Below, one piece after another: positions 52,934 to 64,000 of a DNA stretch of 64,000 bases. A model generated the notes under the pieces. It worked only from the letters and a program-made list of their open reading frames with translations, made no database searches and had not been told where the DNA came from. Each line of letters opens with the position of its first letter. Position 1 is the first letter of the stretch. Made by a program: the position numbers and the translations under genes. Source of the stretch: a virus; IMG/VR virus record IMGVR_UViG_3300049033_000018, positions 19,638 through 83,637 of that record, one strand, 5' to 3'.

Positions 52934-52984
52934 TGCAAATATACGAAAAAAAATTGACACCTGCAAGTTTTACAAGTGTCAATT
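52934..52984 (-). promoter_or_regulatory. Fused terminator and promoter
   Basis: Minus-strand hairpin AATTGACACTTGTAA-AAC-TTGCAGGTGTCAATT followed by a T-tract that runs into TATATTTG (52943-36); CTTG at 52967-64 is spaced 20 nt. Confidence 0.8.
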
Positions 52985-55224: not shown

Positions 55225-55704
55225 CTATTTATTATATATTACTATTGTTACATCACAATCGGTAAACTCATTCTGAATAATAGATTTAATTCTCTCCCAA
55301 TCACCCCCAGCAAGTCCCGCCCCAATTTGAGGAAGACCAATTGTTCTACCTTTAAACCTATGATTCATTTTTCTCATACATAAAGTAAGAGCTTCATAAT
55401 CAATAGGAGTTTCTACACCATCTATATGATTTCTACCATAATGATATTGAGTATAAGCATTCACAATATAAGTACCATAAGCTATCTTCATATCTCTTTT
55501 ATAGTCAATGGTTCCTAGTTTGTCAATATTTCCAGGATGTTCTAATTCTTTAGGAAATTTATTACACCCAAAAGCCTGAGCCATCTGAGGAGCAATACCA
55601 GCTCCCATTGTACAAAAACAATTACAGCCGTGGGCTATAACATCAAATTCACCTTCTTGAGCAAGTTGAATTAAATCTCCTTTCATTTCGCTATATCTAC
55701 TCAT
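55225..55704 (-). CDS. Macro domain (ADP-ribose binding/hydrolase) protein
   Basis: KGDLI...IAHGCNC...MGAGIA, NAYTQY and PQIGAGLAGGDW motifs. Confidence 0.9.
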   Translation of the reverse strand: MSRYSEMKGDLIQLAQEGEFDVIAHGCNCFCTMGAGIAPQMAQAFGCNKFPKELEHPGNIDKLGTIDYKRDMKIAYGTYIVNAYTQYHYGRNHIDGVETPIDYEALTLCMRKMNHRFKGRTIGLPQIGAGLAGGDWERIKSIIQNEFTDCDVTIVIYNK

Positions 55705-55705
55705 A

Positions 55706-56221
55706 TTATGATATTTTATTTAACATGTAAATTATTGCTTCTGCTGTCTCTTTTGAGTACACAGGAAGTTTAGTTGTTGCCACATTTCTTAGTTCGGTTC
55801 CTGAATCGTTATCTTCAGGTAAAAGTTCCTGAGTGGTATAAGCACCATTATCTTTAATGTAGTAAGGAATAAAACTGTCTCTTCCTCCATAAAGAACTGC
55901 TTGTTCATCCCCAATCAAATTGGCAGATACTAAAAGGTCAACTGTTTTAACCCACTCTTCATTATTAGGATTATCCTTTAATGGAATCATTATATCACTG
56001 GTTCTTAGATGTTCAGAAATCATTTGTCTTCTGAAGTCAAAAGGAAATGGATTTTTTACATTAAAACTATCTGAAACACCTAACAAAATCAAAAGTTTGT
56101 TATGTCTGGACTGAATAGTTTCAATTAATTTAATGTGGCTAGATGTCAAATAAGGCACCTGCATTCTTGAAATAATAACACCTAAAGTGTTGTTGTCTTT
56201 AAATAGACTTTTTTCTGTCAT
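55706..56221 (-). CDS. nadM: NMN adenylyltransferase (NadM-like, no Nudix domain)
   Basis: GVIISRMQVPYLTSSH (HxGH-like), LLILLGVS, NPFPFDFRRQMI, YGGRDSF and SGTELR motifs. Confidence 0.75.
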   Translation of the reverse strand: MTEKSLFKDNNTLGVIISRMQVPYLTSSHIKLIETIQSRHNKLLILLGVSDSFNVKNPFPFDFRRQMISEHLRTSDIMIPLKDNPNNEEWVKTVDLLVSANLIGDEQAVLYGGRDSFIPYYIKDNGAYTTQELLPEDNDSGTELRNVATTKLPVYSKETAEAIIYMLNKIS

Positions 56222-56342
56222 AGTTTAGTTAATTTTTAATATAGTGGTAAATCAATAATATTTTAAAACTTCAAGTTTATAAAAATTTTTTCCTCCTGCT
56301 GTGTTTTTAAGTTTTTCACTTGTTTCATGGTCAATTCTTTTT

Positions 56343-56777
56343 CTATTTTTTATTCTCAAATTTTAATTTTTCAAGTAAAAACTCAATAGATTTTTTATCA
56401 GTAGTAGATATTTTTGTTGTAATATCCCCCCATCTTTTAGTAGGAAAATTGGGTTTTTGTATATTTTTCTTATGTTCTTCTGGAGTGTATTTATGAATTA
56501 AATCCCATACTTCACTCATAGGTACAGTTTCCCATCTTTCTTCAATAGGATTTTTTAACATTTTGTTAATCATTCTATTAGCCTCATCAAGCATATCATC
56601 CTTATTTTCAAATCCAAGTATAGGTGAATAAAATTTATAACGTTCTTTTCCATCAGTATCAATAATCCCACCTCTATAATGATATTTAAGGGATGTTTTA
56701 AATTGGAATATATCAATAAATAAATTTTTTGATTTTAACCATTCCTTATCATAAAGATATTCTTTATAGTTTTCCAT
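56343..56777 (-). CDS. Hypothetical protein
   Basis: ORF in the operon; no motif recognised. Confidence 0.55.
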   Translation of the reverse strand: MENYKEYLYDKEWLKSKNLFIDIFQFKTSLKYHYRGGIIDTDGKERYKFYSPILGFENKDDMLDEANRMINKMLKNPIEERWETVPMSEVWDLIHKYTPEEHKKNIQKPNFPTKRWGDITTKISTTDKKSIEFLLEKLKFENKK

Positions 56778-57081
56778 CTTCTAATTCTTTCGTTAAAATT
56801 TTTAATAGGTCTTCTTCATTTACTTCATCGAATCCTTCCCATTCCTGCATTGTCTCATAATCATAAGCTATAAAGTCCCCTGTATCTTCATTAAACATTC
56901 CTTCCTTGAAGAAATCTATACAATAACCTTTAGAGTGGTACATTCTATACTGCTTTTTAGACAGTATATCATGAGAGTAATATTCCTCTTCAGTCTTAAT
57001 AATATGGATACCATTTTGTTGAATTTCTCCTAATTTTTCTACTGTCTCAAATAACTTTTGAAATATTGATTTTGCCATCAC
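56764..57081 (-). CDS. Hypothetical protein
   Basis: First ORF after promoter 57096 (GTG 57081 or ATG 57078). Confidence 0.6.
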   Translation of the reverse strand: MMAKSIFQKLFETVEKLGEIQQNGIHIIKTEEEYYSHDILSKKQYRMYHSKGYCIDFFKEGMFNEDTGDFIAYDYETMQEWEGFDEVNEEDLLKILTKELEDGKL

Positions 57082-57093
57082 AATTAATTTATA

Positions 57094-57133
57094 TGCAAAT
57101 ATACAAAAAATCCCTCACATATGCAAGGGATTT
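57094..57133 (-). promoter_or_regulatory. Fused terminator and promoter
   Basis: Minus-strand AAATCCCTTGC-ATAT-GTGAGGGATTT, then TTT-GTATATTTG; CTTG 57127-24, 20 nt, TATATTTG 57103-096. Confidence 0.8.
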
Positions 57134-57148
57134 AGTGTTAATTATATG

Positions 57149-58090
57149 TTAAAATAAGTCAATGACAACTAATTGTTTATGAATATCGTGGTCCCAAGAC
57201 ATATATCTATCAGAATCAAACTTACTATTTGTTGTAAATACTTTATCAAAATAGTTTGTAACTGGGTCATTTCCTAAGTCATTTACTGTTAGGTGACTTA
57301 CAGCTAGGTAAAGTTTACCACAATTTTTCTGTTTCAGTAATTTTGAAAGACCTTTGAAAGTTCCTCCGAATACACAAATGTCGTCAACAATAAGAATGTC
57401 TTTCCCTCCAAAATCTGGTCTATCTATGTTCTGAATTAATTTTGAGTGACCTTCTTCATACTTTCTTGATTTAGAAGCAGAATAAGTTTCACCTTGCCAA
57501 TTAATTTTATCACACATTTTCATTAATGGTTTAAATCCACCAGCATCAGAACTCATTAAAATTAATTTTCCTTGAATTTGTAGAGTTTCTTTATCAATTT
57601 GTTTTAATGCTTTTTCAATAAATTCACTATTGTCAATAATTTCTACACTATCAATCAAAGCTTCAACTACTTCAGGGTTGTGAGGATGGTAGATTTTATA
57701 TCTAAAGTTACTTAAACTATTAAGGAATTCACACACTAATTTAAGTCCATGAGGTTGGTCAATAGCAAATCTTCTATCTGCTTGAGCATCAATTAAATTT
57801 GGAATTATAACAGTAACTGTCCATCCAGATGATTTAACTACATCATGAATCTGATTTAAAATCCACAAATCTTCATAGTGATTAATTCTGAATGTTAATT
57901 TGTTTGAAATACTTTTCACAATAACATATTTACTCATGTCAGGATAATCCTTTACTTCATACTCTAGTTCTGTATTGTAACCTGTATATTTAAATTGTCC
58001 AATTTCATCTAGTACTGATGAATTAGCAACTGTAAATTGTGGAACTTTTCTCCACGCTCTTTCGTCTTTTTCCCAAGGTGTTGTACTCAT
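57149..58090 (-). CDS. prs: Ribose-phosphate pyrophosphokinase-like protein (Prs / Adps-like)
   Basis: IPNLIDAQADRRF, HPHNP, SSDAGG, LIVDDICVFGGTF and LYLAVSH motifs. Confidence 0.85.
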   Translation of the reverse strand: MSTTPWEKDERAWRKVPQFTVANSSVLDEIGQFKYTGYNTELEYEVKDYPDMSKYVIVKSISNKLTFRINHYEDLWILNQIHDVVKSSGWTVTVIIPNLIDAQADRRFAIDQPHGLKLVCEFLNSLSNFRYKIYHPHNPEVVEALIDSVEIIDNSEFIEKALKQIDKETLQIQGKLILMSSDAGGFKPLMKMCDKINWQGETYSASKSRKYEEGHSKLIQNIDRPDFGGKDILIVDDICVFGGTFKGLSKLLKQKNCGKLYLAVSHLTVNDLGNDPVTNYFDKVFTTNSKFDSDRYMSWDHDIHKQLVVIDLF

Positions 58091-58092
58091 AA

Positions 58093-58152
58093 TTATCTTT
58101 TATCTTGTGATATTAATATTAAAGCAAATGCTATTATAAAAATCCATTCCAT
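58093..58152 (-). CDS. 19-aa hydrophobic micropeptide MEWIFIIAFALILISQDKR
   Basis: Hand-translated and absent from the ORF track. TAATG overlap with the NAMPT stop; its stop lies 2 nt before the Prs ATG. Confidence 0.55.
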   Translation of the reverse strand: MEWIFIIAFALILISQDKR

Positions 58153-59855
58153 TAGACCAGTTTGTTAATGTTATTTCTTACATCTGTTAGTGTAACTTCG
58201 TTAGTTAATTTTCCATCAAGAAAAACGATTCCTAATTTATTATCACTATCTTTTAAAGATTTCCAATTAATTTGGTCAACTAATTCAAGTTGTCCACCAT
58301 TATCAACAACTTTCAATAAACCTTTAGCAGATTTTTTCATACCATCATCAGTAATTGGGTCTTTGAAAATTTCAAATCCTTCAGTTACTTCAGCATTGCC
58401 AGAAAATTGACCTGTCCAGTATGTTTTTTCAACATAAGTTGCTTTCATTGCAAACCCGAAAGTATCTCTCGTGTTATACTGATAAGTGTAAGAACCAACT
58501 CCAAACACAACATTAGTTGAAGCAAATCCTTTAGCTGCTAATCTCTTACATATTTGTTCAGCTCTTTCGTGAGTGATAGAATCTCCGTAGATAGCTCCAA
58601 TGTGAGCATCAAGAACTTTATATCCTTGTTCATTAATAGTTCCTCCAAAAACATCCCAAAGCAATTCAATTACTCCTTTATGAAGGGGTGCTGGTTCAAC
58701 AGAATTATCAGAAACTCTAACTACACTATCTCCAAAACAAACATCTACATATCCTTTTTCAGCTATTTCATCTACAAATTTCACTCTAACACTTTCAATA
58801 AATTCTACATTTGGTGCTGTGTATGAAATACCACAAAGAATATCTACAGGGTCCCCAGAGTCAGGACGAATAACAAGTTTACCATCTCTGGTAAGAATTT
58901 CATCCTTCAAGGTAGGTAACAAGTTTGTACACACATTCCATAAATCCCAGGTATCACTTACTACTGAAAGAATACCTTTAGGATACGTTTTCAAAAGTCT
59001 TCTAAATGTTCCAAGTTCATCTTCCTTGGAACCAGCACACATTACAGAGTGTTCAGTTGCAGGAACGGAACCAGCTAACATTTTAGGTTCATTATAGTAA
59101 TGAGCAGCACCCCAAATAGTAGGCATTGAATCAGTTCCATAGAATGAAGTCAAGTGACCTAATCCAGAAGCTACAGTAGCCTCTACAGCATCAAGACCTC
59201 TCATTGAGAAATCATGACCTTGCCAATTAACAAATTCAATAGCTTTAGGGTCTGTTTTCTTAGCCCATTTAGTAAGAATCTTTCTGTAAGACAAAGCAAT
59301 AGTTGCAGAAGTCATTGGTTTCCATAAAAACTGACTTAAAATAGTTTCTAAGAAATTTGGTAACCAGTAAAATTCAGGATTTGTATTATGAATAGTTAAC
59401 ATAGGAACTCTTATAGGACAAATAGTACCTTCTTCAAGAGCTCTTATTTCTAATGGAAGATACCCTAAATCCCACAATTTTTCAAAATGGGTAGTATCAT
59501 ATTCTGAACCAAAGAAAAGTGATAGAGCCTCCTTTATTGGCTCAATAGCCTGATGTTTCAATTGTTCTAATACTCCCTTGTTCATTGTGTCAACAAAACC
59601 GTTTCCAGAATCAGTTACAATCATATTTCTTTCTTTAGTAAAAAAGAAATTTGTATCAAATTCTTCAACTAATTTTTTGATTGCTAACTGAACCCCAAAT
59701 ACTACCACCCCTCCTAAATCTTTTGTAGCCTCAGGAGCATATTTATTAGCTCTTGGAGTAAAGTTAGAGAATACTAAACTTGTTCCTTCTGGGTATTGTT
59801 GATGGTGAGATAGTTTGTAAGCATCAGTTAATAAAATTGCATTTTGTTTGTTCAT
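58152..59855 (-). CDS. nadV: Nicotinamide phosphoribosyltransferase-like protein (NAMPT / Namat-like)
   Basis: LLTDAYKLSHHQQYP, HDFSMRG, SVPATEHSVMC, SVVSDTWD, IRPDSGDP, IYGDSIT and KKSAKG motifs. Confidence 0.93.
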   Translation of the reverse strand: MNKQNAILLTDAYKLSHHQQYPEGTSLVFSNFTPRANKYAPEATKDLGGVVVFGVQLAIKKLVEEFDTNFFFTKERNMIVTDSGNGFVDTMNKGVLEQLKHQAIEPIKEALSLFFGSEYDTTHFEKLWDLGYLPLEIRALEEGTICPIRVPMLTIHNTNPEFYWLPNFLETILSQFLWKPMTSATIALSYRKILTKWAKKTDPKAIEFVNWQGHDFSMRGLDAVEATVASGLGHLTSFYGTDSMPTIWGAAHYYNEPKMLAGSVPATEHSVMCAGSKEDELGTFRRLLKTYPKGILSVVSDTWDLWNVCTNLLPTLKDEILTRDGKLVIRPDSGDPVDILCGISYTAPNVEFIESVRVKFVDEIAEKGYVDVCFGDSVVRVSDNSVEPAPLHKGVIELLWDVFGGTINEQGYKVLDAHIGAIYGDSITHERAEQICKRLAAKGFASTNVVFGVGSYTYQYNTRDTFGFAMKATYVEKTYWTGQFSGNAEVTEGFEIFKDPITDDGMKKSAKGLLKVVDNGGQLELVDQINWKSLKDSDNKLGIVFLDGKLTNEVTLTDVRNNINKLV

Positions 59856-59870
59856 AATATTGATTTTTGA

Positions 59871-60260
59871 TTATTTTATATGTTCTTCTAAAACGATTAA
59901 TTGATTTGAAATTATTTCTCCTCCTACTCCTTTTATATATAATGACCCTTTAGGAATAATAGCTTTAAGCATTAATGTTCTAATAGAGTGCATGTATAGA
60001 AGAGCTTGTAGAGCATTTCGTTGGTTTCTATAAGAATGTAATCCTATTTCTAAATAAAGGTGTTTTCTAGTGAGATTCTCTAAAGGGGAGACCATGACTA
60101 TATTTAGTGTATAAGGGTATTCTTGAATTGGAGATTCCCAGCTACCATCTCTGTTTAATTTTAATAATTTATATACAGGAATGTCTTTCTTTGCTATCCT
60201 ATATTTGGGACCTAAGATAATATTTTTTAATACTGATAGTGGTCTAATAGTTAAACACAT
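59871..60260 (-). CDS. Hypothetical protein
   Basis: First ORF after promoter 60285; DIPVYK...GLHSY...IIPKGS pattern seen in Bacteroidota phage proteins. Confidence 0.6.
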   Translation of the reverse strand: MCLTIRPLSVLKNIILGPKYRIAKKDIPVYKLLKLNRDGSWESPIQEYPYTLNIVMVSPLENLTRKHLYLEIGLHSYRNQRNALQALLYMHSIRTLMLKAIIPKGSLYIKGVGGEIISNQLIVLEEHIK

Positions 60261-60282: not shown

Positions 60283-60322
60283 TGCAAATATACAAAAAAA
60301 TCCTCACTTACGCAAGGATTTT
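60283..60322 (-). promoter_or_regulatory. Fused terminator and promoter
   Basis: Minus-strand AAAATCCTTGC-GTAA-GTGAGGATTTT (GNRA loop) plus T-tract; CTTG 60316-13, 20 nt, TATATTTG 60292-85. Confidence 0.8.
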
Positions 60323-60343
60323 CTGTTAAAATTTTGTTAAAAA

Positions 60344-63108: not shown

Positions 63109-64000
63109 TTAAGCTTCACAAGCACTACAATCTGGTTTTTGTACAATGTTTGATAATAATTCTTTTGATACACTCTTACTTCTTTGGTAATAAAGTGTTT
63201 TAACTCCTTTCTTCCATGCATCTATATAAAGTCTGTTAACATCTTTAACCTCCATTTCTGGTGGAATATTAAGATTTAAACTTTGAGCTTGGTCAATAAA
63301 GGTTTGTCTTAAAGCAGCTTGTTCTACAATAGCAAATTGATTAACCTCTTGGAAGGTTTTGAATACCTCTTTTTCTTCTTGAGATAAACATTCTAATTGT
63401 TGAACCGAACCGTGATTCAGCATGATTTGTCTCCAAGTTTCTTCATTATCTAATCCTTTTTCTTCTAATAAAGCTGCTAAGTATTTATTCTTTCTCATAA
63501 AGTTTCCTTTTGCAAGCCCTGCTTTAAAATAATTTGAAGAGAAAGGCTCAATTCCAGGAGAAACTTGTCCTAGAATAGAACTTGAACTTGTAGTAGGAGC
63601 AATAGCCATCAAAGTTGTATTTCTTCTACCATAGCCTTTTAAAAGCTCAGGTTCCCCAAATATGTCAGCAAGTTCTTTTGAAGCTTGTAAAGATTGTTCC
63701 TGTAGTTGTTTGAAAATTACAGTTGTGTAAGCTCTTGCTGATAAAGAATCAAATGGAAGCATTTTACTTTGTAATAATGAATGCCACCCCATAACACCAA
63801 GACCTAAAGCTCTATGTCTTTTAGCAAATAAATGAGCTGATTCCATGAAAGGAAGACCATCTGTTTTTTCAATAAACTCAGACATAACAGCATCTAAAAT
63901 ATAAATTGCAATTTTAACTGCTTTTGTATCTTTCCATTCATCATAAAGTTCTAAATTCATAGAAGCTAAACAACAAACAAAGGATTCTTCTAGTGATGAT
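63109..64000 (-). CDS. nrdA: Ribonucleotide reductase class Ia alpha subunit (5' partial)
   Basis: ESFVCCLASMNL at the window edge, MAIAPTTSSS, SPGIEP, FIDQAQSLNL, KTLYYQRS and C-terminal CSACEA. Confidence 0.95.
   Translation of the reverse strand, partial: SSLEESFVCCLASMNLELYDEWKDTKAVKIAIYILDAVMSEFIEKTDGLPFMESAHLFAKRHRALGLGVMGWHSLLQSKMLPFDSLSARAYTTVIFKQLQEQSLQASKELADIFGEPELLKGYGRRNTTLMAIAPTTSSSSILGQVSPGIEPFSSNYFKAGLAKGNFMRKNKYLAALLEEKGLDNEETWRQIMLNHGSVQQLECLSQEEKEVFKTFQEVNQFAIVEQAALRQTFIDQAQSLNLNIPPEMEVKDVNRLYIDAWKKGVKTLYYQRSKSVSKELLSNIVQKPDCSACEA

Follow-up and report, generated by a model that had tools for sequence, protein, structure and literature searches.

A probable NARP1-AP-type NAD+ reconstitution island with an adjoining Nudix-less NMNAT gene in an uncultured phage

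The locus and its enzyme genes

The stretch of DNA analysed here (the window, 64,000 nucleotides) spans bases 19638–83637 of the IMG/VR virus record IMGVR_UViG_3300049033_000018, which is 157,140 bases long and rated 100% complete, and this work concerns a group of genes for putative nicotinamide adenine dinucleotide (NAD+) reconstitution at 55225–59855 of the window. The minus strand of this region contains six open reading frames (ORFs) of 567, 313, 105, 144, 171 and 159 amino acids (aa). A sequence-only reading of the same DNA had described adjacent NAMPT-like and Prs-like genes together with an NMNAT and a macro-domain gene. All four were found on the minus strand, with family matches far beyond chance, as follows.

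58152..59855, minus strand: predicted Namat, 567 aa (PF04095, E 2e-37; PF18127; phrog_448, E 3e-181)
57149..58090, minus strand: predicted divergent Adps-like (PRPS-fold) enzyme, 313 aa (PF00156; phrog_619, E 1e-33)
55706..56221, minus strand: predicted NMNAT of the NadM/archaeal type, single-domain, TxSH variant, without Nudix, 171 aa (profile and fold search)
55225..55704, minus strand: macro-domain protein, probable Adpp, 159 aa (PF01661, 22.5 bits with a cut-off of 22; phrog_335 'phosphatase', E 6e-50)

The presence of these genes, the family and clade membership of their products, the conserved residues and the gene order in relatives were observed directly. The window has a G+C content of about 31%, and from about 44 kb onwards every gene in it lies on the minus strand. 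The closest deposited match for Namat was in a crAss-like gut phage (47.5%) and that for the macro gene was in Cellulophaga phages (49%), and a megablast of the 5-kb island region against the phage collection returned no match. The virus is a phage without a close cultured relative, and its host is probably a member of Bacteroidota.

The NAMPT-like protein groups with Namat

Namat is defined by a selectivity clamp consisting of a helix, with the consensus GS-X-phi-X-phi-X-phi-TRD in which the X positions are aromatic, and of a variable loop in which the third residue is R, K or Y and, with K or Y at that place, stacking falls to the residue after it (PMC12774641). The helix of the window protein, GSYTYQYNTRD, matched the published motif exactly, and its loop A-N-K-Y, which aligned to T-S-R of the SPbetaL1 Namat, fitted the loop rule. 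Nampt-type relatives show GGxLLQ at the clamp position. The best solved structure was 9w5x (E 1e-147), of which the numbering and residues agree with the published SPbetaL1 Namat, as against about 1e-54 to 1e-60 for bacterial and mammalian Nampts. The identity to ICP1 Namat was 42%, and the catalytic residues of Namat, namely the aspartates, the histidine and the FSxR and RPD stretches, were retained. Two insertions relative to the SPbetaL1 and ICP1 Namats were located at about aa 78–117 and 344–390, and the Namats of clade relatives were also long (534–620 aa).

A maximum likelihood tree of 70 NAMPT-family sequences placed the window protein in a nine-member Namat clade (support 100/100, stem 0.82), which holds the five NARP1 references Hakuna, LinBro, cr111_1, ICP1 and Cody. 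Outside this clade fell 50 NMNAT-adjacent genes, and likewise the SCTP-2 protein and the NadV of phi-Grn1, which is of the KVP40 type. A phylogeny against characterised Namat and Nampt proteins had been proposed as a check in the sequence-only reading. Judged by its clamp and its position in the tree, the NAMPT-like protein is a Namat and not a Nampt. As this Namat-type gene is the sole NAMPT-family gene of the 157-kb genome, NARP2 proper (Nampt plus Nmnat) is absent, and the earlier suggestion that the phage may run both routes was not borne out.

Other NAMPT-related forms were seen in viral relatives. Locus L061 encodes a Nampt-type protein (L061:1012-2571, minus strand) with GSGGGLLQ at the clamp position, which is the sister of the Namat clade (93/95). 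Its gene adjoins a Prs-like match at L061:20-595, an NMNAT-Nudix gene lies 7.4 kb off, and this could be a three-enzyme form that is transitional or works with PRPP (phosphoribosyl pyrophosphate). A divergent NAPRTase-like family of about 550 aa (stem 2.4) without the clamp motif was found at L009:1369-3057 and L010:841-2538 and in L015, L017, L020, L065 and L069. It recurs near NMNAT-family genes, mostly NMNAT-Nudix fusions, and near Prs-like genes in four of the seven loci, where the two may form another uncharacterised PRPS-like/NAPRTase-like pair.

The Prs-like protein resembles Adps

The 313-aa protein showed 30% identity (E 4e-18) to ICP1 Adps, the activity and structure of which have been published (PMC13586617). 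It scored 56 bits to ICP1 Adps and 25 bits to E. coli Prs in phmmer, and with the curated Prs model TIGR01251 (cut-off 113) the scores were 56 bits for the window protein, 98 for ICP1 Adps and 423 for E. coli Prs. The C-terminal helices by which PRPS forms filaments and is regulated were absent, as in other Adps enzymes. The equivalents of ICP1 K185, D212, D213, H121, D161, F18 (here Y), F92 and F221 were invariant in 31 homologues. When the nine ICP1 catalytic or acceptor residues (K185, D212, D213, H121, D161, R87, D216, F18 and F92) were considered, seven were kept. The equivalent of R87 is Q (Q103 in the window protein), which is invariant in the subfamily, and that of D216 is mostly V (V240 in the window protein). 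ICP1 Adps has R87 and D216 in common with PRPS, and the D216 position is S in the Adps of Bacillus phage Hakuna.

The subfamily has the signatures AQADRRF in the RF-loop and DDICV[YF]GGTF in the PP-loop. The sequence-only reading had contrasted the loop DDICVFGGTF with that of housekeeping Prs. The loop is present in the protein, but the PP loops of accepted Adps enzymes vary (DDICDGAASF, DDISDGGASF, DDICDGGRTF, DDLISKGGTF and DDLCDRGGTF), and for this reason the loop was rejected as a discriminator of Adps from Prs.

The neighbourhoods of seven members of the Adps-subfamily clade were read, namely the window, L003, L004, L114, L115, L116 and L117. A Namat gene was located within 3.5 kb upstream in all seven, and the clamp motif was present in all three Namats checked (window, L003 and L004). 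An eighth neighbourhood, available as a gene listing without DNA, had a NAPRTase-family gene within 3 kb. The presence of Namat nearby in the clade is the strongest contextual evidence for the Adps identity. These sequence features mark the Prs-like protein as a divergent enzyme of the Adps-like kind, and the pair, with the clamp motif and clade of Namat and an Adps-like Prs protein, is of the NARP1 type as had been anticipated.

The macro-domain protein as a probable Adpp

According to a 2026 preprint, 15% of NARP1 operons contain a macro-domain gene, and the Adpp of Vibrio phage Gary converts ADP-ribose-1''-phosphate (ADPR-1''-P), the product of the aRES defence, to ADP-ribose (ADPR), from which NARP1 is able to remake NAD+; the arrangement was named NARP1-AP (Osterman et al., bioRxiv 10.64898/2026.01.28.702374). 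The window macro protein aligned along its whole length to Cody gp176, with 35% identity (E 5e-25). The characterised NARP1-AP operon of Gary and the three-gene operon of Vibrio phage Cody (Adps-phosphatase-Namat) share 95.6% DNA identity. Macro homologues (50–69% identity) were found at most 2.5 kb from NARP1 in all six other clade members, which makes 7/7 with the window. The homologue lies 1.5–2.5 kb after Adps in L004, L114, L115 and L116 and abuts Namat in L003 and L117, where it falls within the two-gene rule of the NARP1-AP survey. The structural match to Poa1p had a template modelling (TM) score of 0.71–0.72. Neither a phage ADP-ribosyltransferase as a partner of the macro protein nor a second macro gene was found in the genome; the sole PARP signal scored 12 bits and was noise, with no family for the ORFs at that place. 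The homology and the gene order together suggested that the macro protein is a probable Adpp, that is, an ADPR-1''-phosphate phosphatase.

Accessory genes occur inside the NARP1 clusters of relatives (L114:9232-9999, L114:8291-8776, L004:5477-6004 and L115:8716-9186). An ADP-ribosylglycohydrolase gene (PF03747, E 1e-23) is present directly upstream of Adps in L114, and a nucleoside 2-deoxyribosyltransferase-like gene (PF15891) directly follows Namat in three relatives. SIR2-domain proteins (PF02146; 230 and 292 aa) are encoded on contigs of related phages at L099:5423-6115 and L116:19923-20801, and L116 also holds NARP1 genes.

A single-domain NMNAT-type protein beside the macro gene

The 171-aa protein had no Pfam match, and its sole PHROG match was phrog_395 (E 7e-9). 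A profile of 36 homologues searched against the PDB gave 11 matches, all of which were NMNAT or NadM chains (E 6e-10 to 4e-6). The AlphaFold2 model, with a predicted local distance difference test score (pLDDT) of 84, had NMNAT domains as its top 26 Foldseek matches, ahead of PPAT and glycerol-3-phosphate cytidylyltransferase. R19, H29 and R145 were invariant and corresponded on alignment to R11, H19 and R136 of the archaeal (Methanobacterium) enzyme, which are the positions mutated according to PDB titles. As read from the profile, the model and these residues, the protein is an NMNAT-type enzyme with the NadM/archaeal fold.

Viral contigs were searched for NMNAT relatives with an alignment query, and 80 viral loci encoding such relatives were found. 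A NAMPT-family gene was located within 1.5 kb in 60 of them, mostly directly downstream, and this combination is the NARP2 arrangement. The NMNAT-adjacent NAMPT-family genes were without the clamp motif except for two loose pattern matches, and those included in the tree were outside the Namat clade. The Nampt-adjacent relatives are about 313 aa long, and all six that were sampled carry a C-terminal NUDIX, as in NadM and NatV. The subfamily of the window NMNAT (47–89% identity) is single-domain, 171–188 aa long and without Nudix.

The genome was found to contain neither a second cytidylyltransferase-type gene nor, as a source of nicotinamide mononucleotide (NMN), an NAD-dependent ligase gene. 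The only other nucleotide-diphosphate-handling gene found in it encodes a stand-alone NUDIX protein of 123 aa (PF00293, E 1.5e-14) at G000:C1:117578-117949 (L101:1378-1749, minus strand), about 34 kb beyond the window.

Predicted transcription units

The remaining features of the region are the following.

60285..60324, minus strand: terminator-like hairpin (60324-60295), then TTGTATATTTG box; probably where the upstream unit ends and unit A begins
59871..60260, minus strand: 129-aa ORF, predicted to open unit A; matches phrog_13450, a family of unknown function (E 3.5e-15)
57096..57133, minus strand: terminator-like hairpin (57133-57108; 11-bp stem) and TTGTATATTTG box; predicted boundary of units A and B
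56764..57081, minus strand: 105-aa ORF, predicted first gene of unit B, without family match
56343..56777, minus strand: 144-aa ORF, predicted unit B, without family match

The cassettes at 60285-60324 and 57096-57133 were near-identical in form, each with a hairpin and the TTGTATATTTG box, and both hairpins (60324-60295 and 57133-57108) were followed by the same TTTTTTGTATATTTGCA, which includes TAnnTTTG. TAnnTTTG is the Bacteroidota -7 promoter consensus. These cassettes look like fused terminator-promoter elements that divide the region into units. Their positions suggest a unit A consisting of the 129-aa ORF, Namat and Adps, in which the gap between Namat and Adps is 61 nucleotides, and a unit B consisting of the 105-aa ORF, the 144-aa ORF, NMNAT, macro and further genes. 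A one-mismatch TTGTATATTTG box is also present at 52936-52946 (minus strand), and hairpin and box cassettes recur in intergenic gaps.

The stop of the Prs-like gene and the start of NMNAT are separated by 0.93 kb, with the predicted hairpin at 57133-57108 and the promoter-like box in between, in agreement with the earlier placing of NMNAT and macro in a next operon about 1 kb away. The stop of NMNAT is 1 nucleotide from the start of macro, and NMNAT is translationally coupled to the macro gene.

The 129-aa ORF had no Pfam match, the 105-aa and 144-aa ORFs had no Pfam, PHROG or NCBIfam match, and for none of the three was a homologue found at the loci of relatives. The Atlas leads for the 144-aa ORF were all below 0.8, and none of the three ORFs had a lead there that could be used. 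At the end of the window, an ORF at 63109-63999 (minus strand) was 54% identical to the ribonucleotide reductase large subunit encoded just upstream of Namat in L004, and by this similarity the region is syntenic with a nucleotide-metabolism block.

Proposed NAD+ reconstitution and alternative explanations

These results together suggested that the island is probably a module for NAD+ reconstitution of the NARP1-AP type to which one enzyme, the NMNAT, has been added. In the proposed mechanism, the Adps-like enzyme would pyrophosphorylate ADP-ribose with ATP to ADPR-PP, and Namat would combine ADPR-PP with nicotinamide to give NAD+, which would undo the cleavage of NAD+ by SIR2, TIR and SEFIR effectors. 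The macro protein would take the 1''-phosphate off the aRES product ADPR-1''-P and feed the Adps step. The NMNAT, using NMN and ATP to produce NAD+, would provide a second entry point, and its NMN might be supplied by Namat acting on host PRPP, as a bypass resembling NARP2, or by defences such as Metis MisA, in which NAD+ is split to NMN and AMP. The biochemistry of NARP1 has been published (bioRxiv 10.1101/2024.02.11.579819), and it is by homology to tested enzymes that the ADP-ribose route and the rescue of ADPR-1''-P are proposed here. The substrates and activities of the window enzymes, the operon boundaries and the tie of NMNAT to counter-defence are what we infer from the observations above.

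Several observations, taken here with the alternatives that they bear on, weigh against this interpretation. The Adps-like protein is just 24–30% identical to tested Adps enzymes, and two residues that Adps and PRPS have in common (ICP1 R87 and D216) are replaced in it; on these grounds ADP-ribose is a putative acceptor. The genes might instead serve plain NAD+ salvage or boosting in three KVP40-style steps, with the Prs-like enzyme making PRPP, the NAMPT-like enzyme making NMN and NMNAT making NAD+, and with macro unrelated. All three enzyme families required for this are present within 4.6 kb, the Prs-like enzyme, with its lineage-specific changes at two substrate-site residues, might use another acceptor, its loop has the GGT of housekeeping Prs, and Namat-type enzymes take PRPP in vitro (PMC12774641). 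Nevertheless, salvage appears very unlikely. The NAMPT-like protein has the full adenine clamp and is inside the Namat clade, and the Prs-like protein scores below the cut-offs of the Prs models and is without the regulatory helices. Moreover, six of the seven clade members hold the pair and macro without a nearby NMNAT, which indicates that the pair works without NMNAT, and SPbetaL1 Adps yielded no product from ribose-5-phosphate (bioRxiv 10.1101/2024.02.11.579819).

The model of the macro protein (pLDDT 82) matched TARG1, DarG and Poa1p about equally, and a phosphatase and an ADP-ribosyl hydrolase are not separable by fold. The macro family occurs in about 2,760 phage records, which exceeds the number of NARP1 carriers, and the window gene is four genes from Adps, which puts it past a predicted terminator and beyond the two genes that the survey allows. 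The macro protein could be considered as a TARG1/DarG-like hydrolase that removes ADP-ribosylation from protein, DNA or RNA; such an enzyme would counter ADP-ribosylating defences or toxins and could free ADP-ribose for Adps. The best structural matches were TARG1 and DarG (E 2e-9 to 1e-7), slightly above Poa1p, the best NCBIfam match was DarG, and the ADP-ribosylglycohydrolase gene of L114 is found directly upstream of Adps. We consider a hydrolase unlikely, since the protein is far closer in sequence to the NARP1-AP Adpp (E 5e-25) than to any PDB hydrolase (E 8e-8), Gary Adpp turns ADPR-1''-P into ADPR (bioRxiv 10.64898/2026.01.28.702374), and the search of the genome for an ADP-ribosyltransferase gene was negative. 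The sequence-only reading had the macro domain releasing ADP-ribose from modified targets; the published role of Adpp fits better, with the fold equally near to both kinds of enzyme.

As regards the NMNAT, the protein scored below every curated NMNAT cut-off (the best NCBIfam model, NF002243, gave 38.6 bits against 127), and HxGH is replaced by TxSH (T26-x-S28-H29, with Ser for Gly, after a 2-residue insertion). The SxTxxR motif is kept as SGTELR, and the residues of TxSH and SGTELR are invariant or nearly so in the 36 homologues. When 6–10 kb on each side of the Namat/Adps pair were covered, NMNAT was near NARP1 in one of the seven clade members, that is, in the window alone. In addition, NMNAT of this subfamily occurs without a NAMPT-family or Prs-like gene in the complete 188-kb G002 (the record of L007) and in LR756500.1 and LR745206.1, which are huge phages of about 460–630 kb; NMNAT alone is thus useful to some phages. 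Two other huge phages have the NMNAT subfamily and a NAMPT-family gene without a Prs-like gene.

The placement of NMNAT beside NARP1 may be incidental. The island would then be an ordinary NARP1-AP with a chance neighbour, and the independent NMNAT would, for example, recycle NMN from the host NAD-dependent ligase or boost NAD+ for phage enzymes. This explanation, which also agrees with the predicted terminator between NMNAT and the pair, is somewhat unlikely in our view. The product of NMNAT is the very metabolite that the island rebuilds, and the gene is translationally coupled to macro. The two are linked again in L100, the closest relative (NMNAT 89%, macro 81%), where NMNAT, a 97-aa ORF and macro are present and the contig ends just upstream. 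The 210-kb G001 combines the same NMNAT subfamily (67%) with a Namat-clade gene and a Prs-like gene 13–15 kb away. Finally, the subfamily is without the ADP-ribose-hydrolysing Nudix that would compete with Adps.

In the original survey (bioRxiv 10.1101/2024.02.11.579819), NARP1 and NARP2 were not found together in any phage, and no paper describing NARP1 together with NMNAT was found in the later literature. A hybrid NARP1/NARP2-like route, which the sequence-only reading had offered next to the two complete routes, is plausible; it would depend on a residual PRPP-to-NMN activity of Namat or on another source of NMN. Namat makes NMN from PRPP in vitro with about half of the activity of human Nampt (PMC12774641). 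The Nudix domain of NadM is an ADP-ribose pyrophosphatase according to PDB titles, and we infer that its absence here avoids competition with Adps for ADP-ribose. According to the Metis authors, NARP1 cannot counter Metis MisA.

A further possibility, which we put forward tentatively, is that Adps/Namat, macro and the Nudix-less NMNAT form a kit for NAD+ repair with three inputs, which would be the first NARP1/NARP2 hybrid found in nature and in which the loss of Nudix would be adaptive. In such a kit NMNAT would re-join NMN to AMP and so counter NAD+ diphosphatase defences such as Metis MisA beyond NARP1, it would also capture NMN produced by Namat from PRPP, and the loss of Nudix would be an adaptation sparing the substrate of Adps from NMNAT. 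The NARP1-AP-type module with an additional NMNAT is the interpretation we prefer, and the sequence-only reading as a whole was partly supported.

Comparison with known systems and significance

The depletion of NAD+ is among the commonest antiphage strategies of bacteria, and the phage pathways that rebuild NAD+ (NARP1, NARP1-AP, NARP2, NARP3 and RyDEP) are being mapped fast. Two recent preprints describe the aRES and Metis defences, which cleave NAD+ in ways beyond NARP1 repair. A NARP1-AP with a stand-alone NMNAT is a natural and testable case of whether phages stack repair routes across cleavage chemistries. At its core the island is the already known NARP1-AP, and the NMNAT is a rare addition to it. 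What is new is that a stand-alone NMNAT without Nudix adjoins the macro gene in a NARP1-AP island, that two substrate-site residues are altered in an Adps subfamily, and that the kit occurs across a large clade of uncultured phages. NARP1-AP is thereby extended to this clade, which has a Bacteroidota-type promoter box, and the altered residues of Adps would be useful for defining the determinants of ADP-ribose specificity.

The NARP2 of Vibrio phage KVP40, which is made of the Nampt NadV and the NMNAT-Nudix protein NatV, has an NMNAT of the NadM/archaeal type in common with the window, and distant relatives of the window NMNAT adjoin Nampt-type genes as in NARP2. It differs in that the window genome is without a Nampt-type gene and that the window NMNAT is single-domain, with TxSH for HxGH and without the Nudix ADP-ribose pyrophosphatase.

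The NARP1 systems of Bacillus phage SPbetaL1, Vibrio phage ICP1 and Escherichia phage Bas63 (bioRxiv 10.1101/2024.02.11.579819; PMC12774641; PMC13586617) share the adjacent Adps/Namat pair with the window. The catalytic core and the adenine clamp of Namat are common to all. In Adps, the catalytic lysine, the DD pair and the aromatic residues that contact adenine are shared, and so is the loss of the PRPS regulatory C-terminus. However, the window Namat has 567 aa with two insertions as compared with about 490 aa, and the window Adps subfamily has its own RF-loop and PP-loop, as given above.

The NARP1-AP of Vibrio phage Gary was compared through the Cody operon. The window differs from it in the position of macro, which is four genes from Adps and past a predicted terminator, in the reversed order of Namat then Adps, in an Adps of only about 25–30% identity with Q for ICP1 R87 and V for D216, in the NMNAT immediately upstream of macro, and in a host that is probably a member of Bacteroidota and not Vibrio. 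Nevertheless, the same three enzyme families are present in both, Namat carries the clamp motif, macro matches Adpp along its whole length at 35% identity, and the three genes are contiguous in the clade members L003 and L117.

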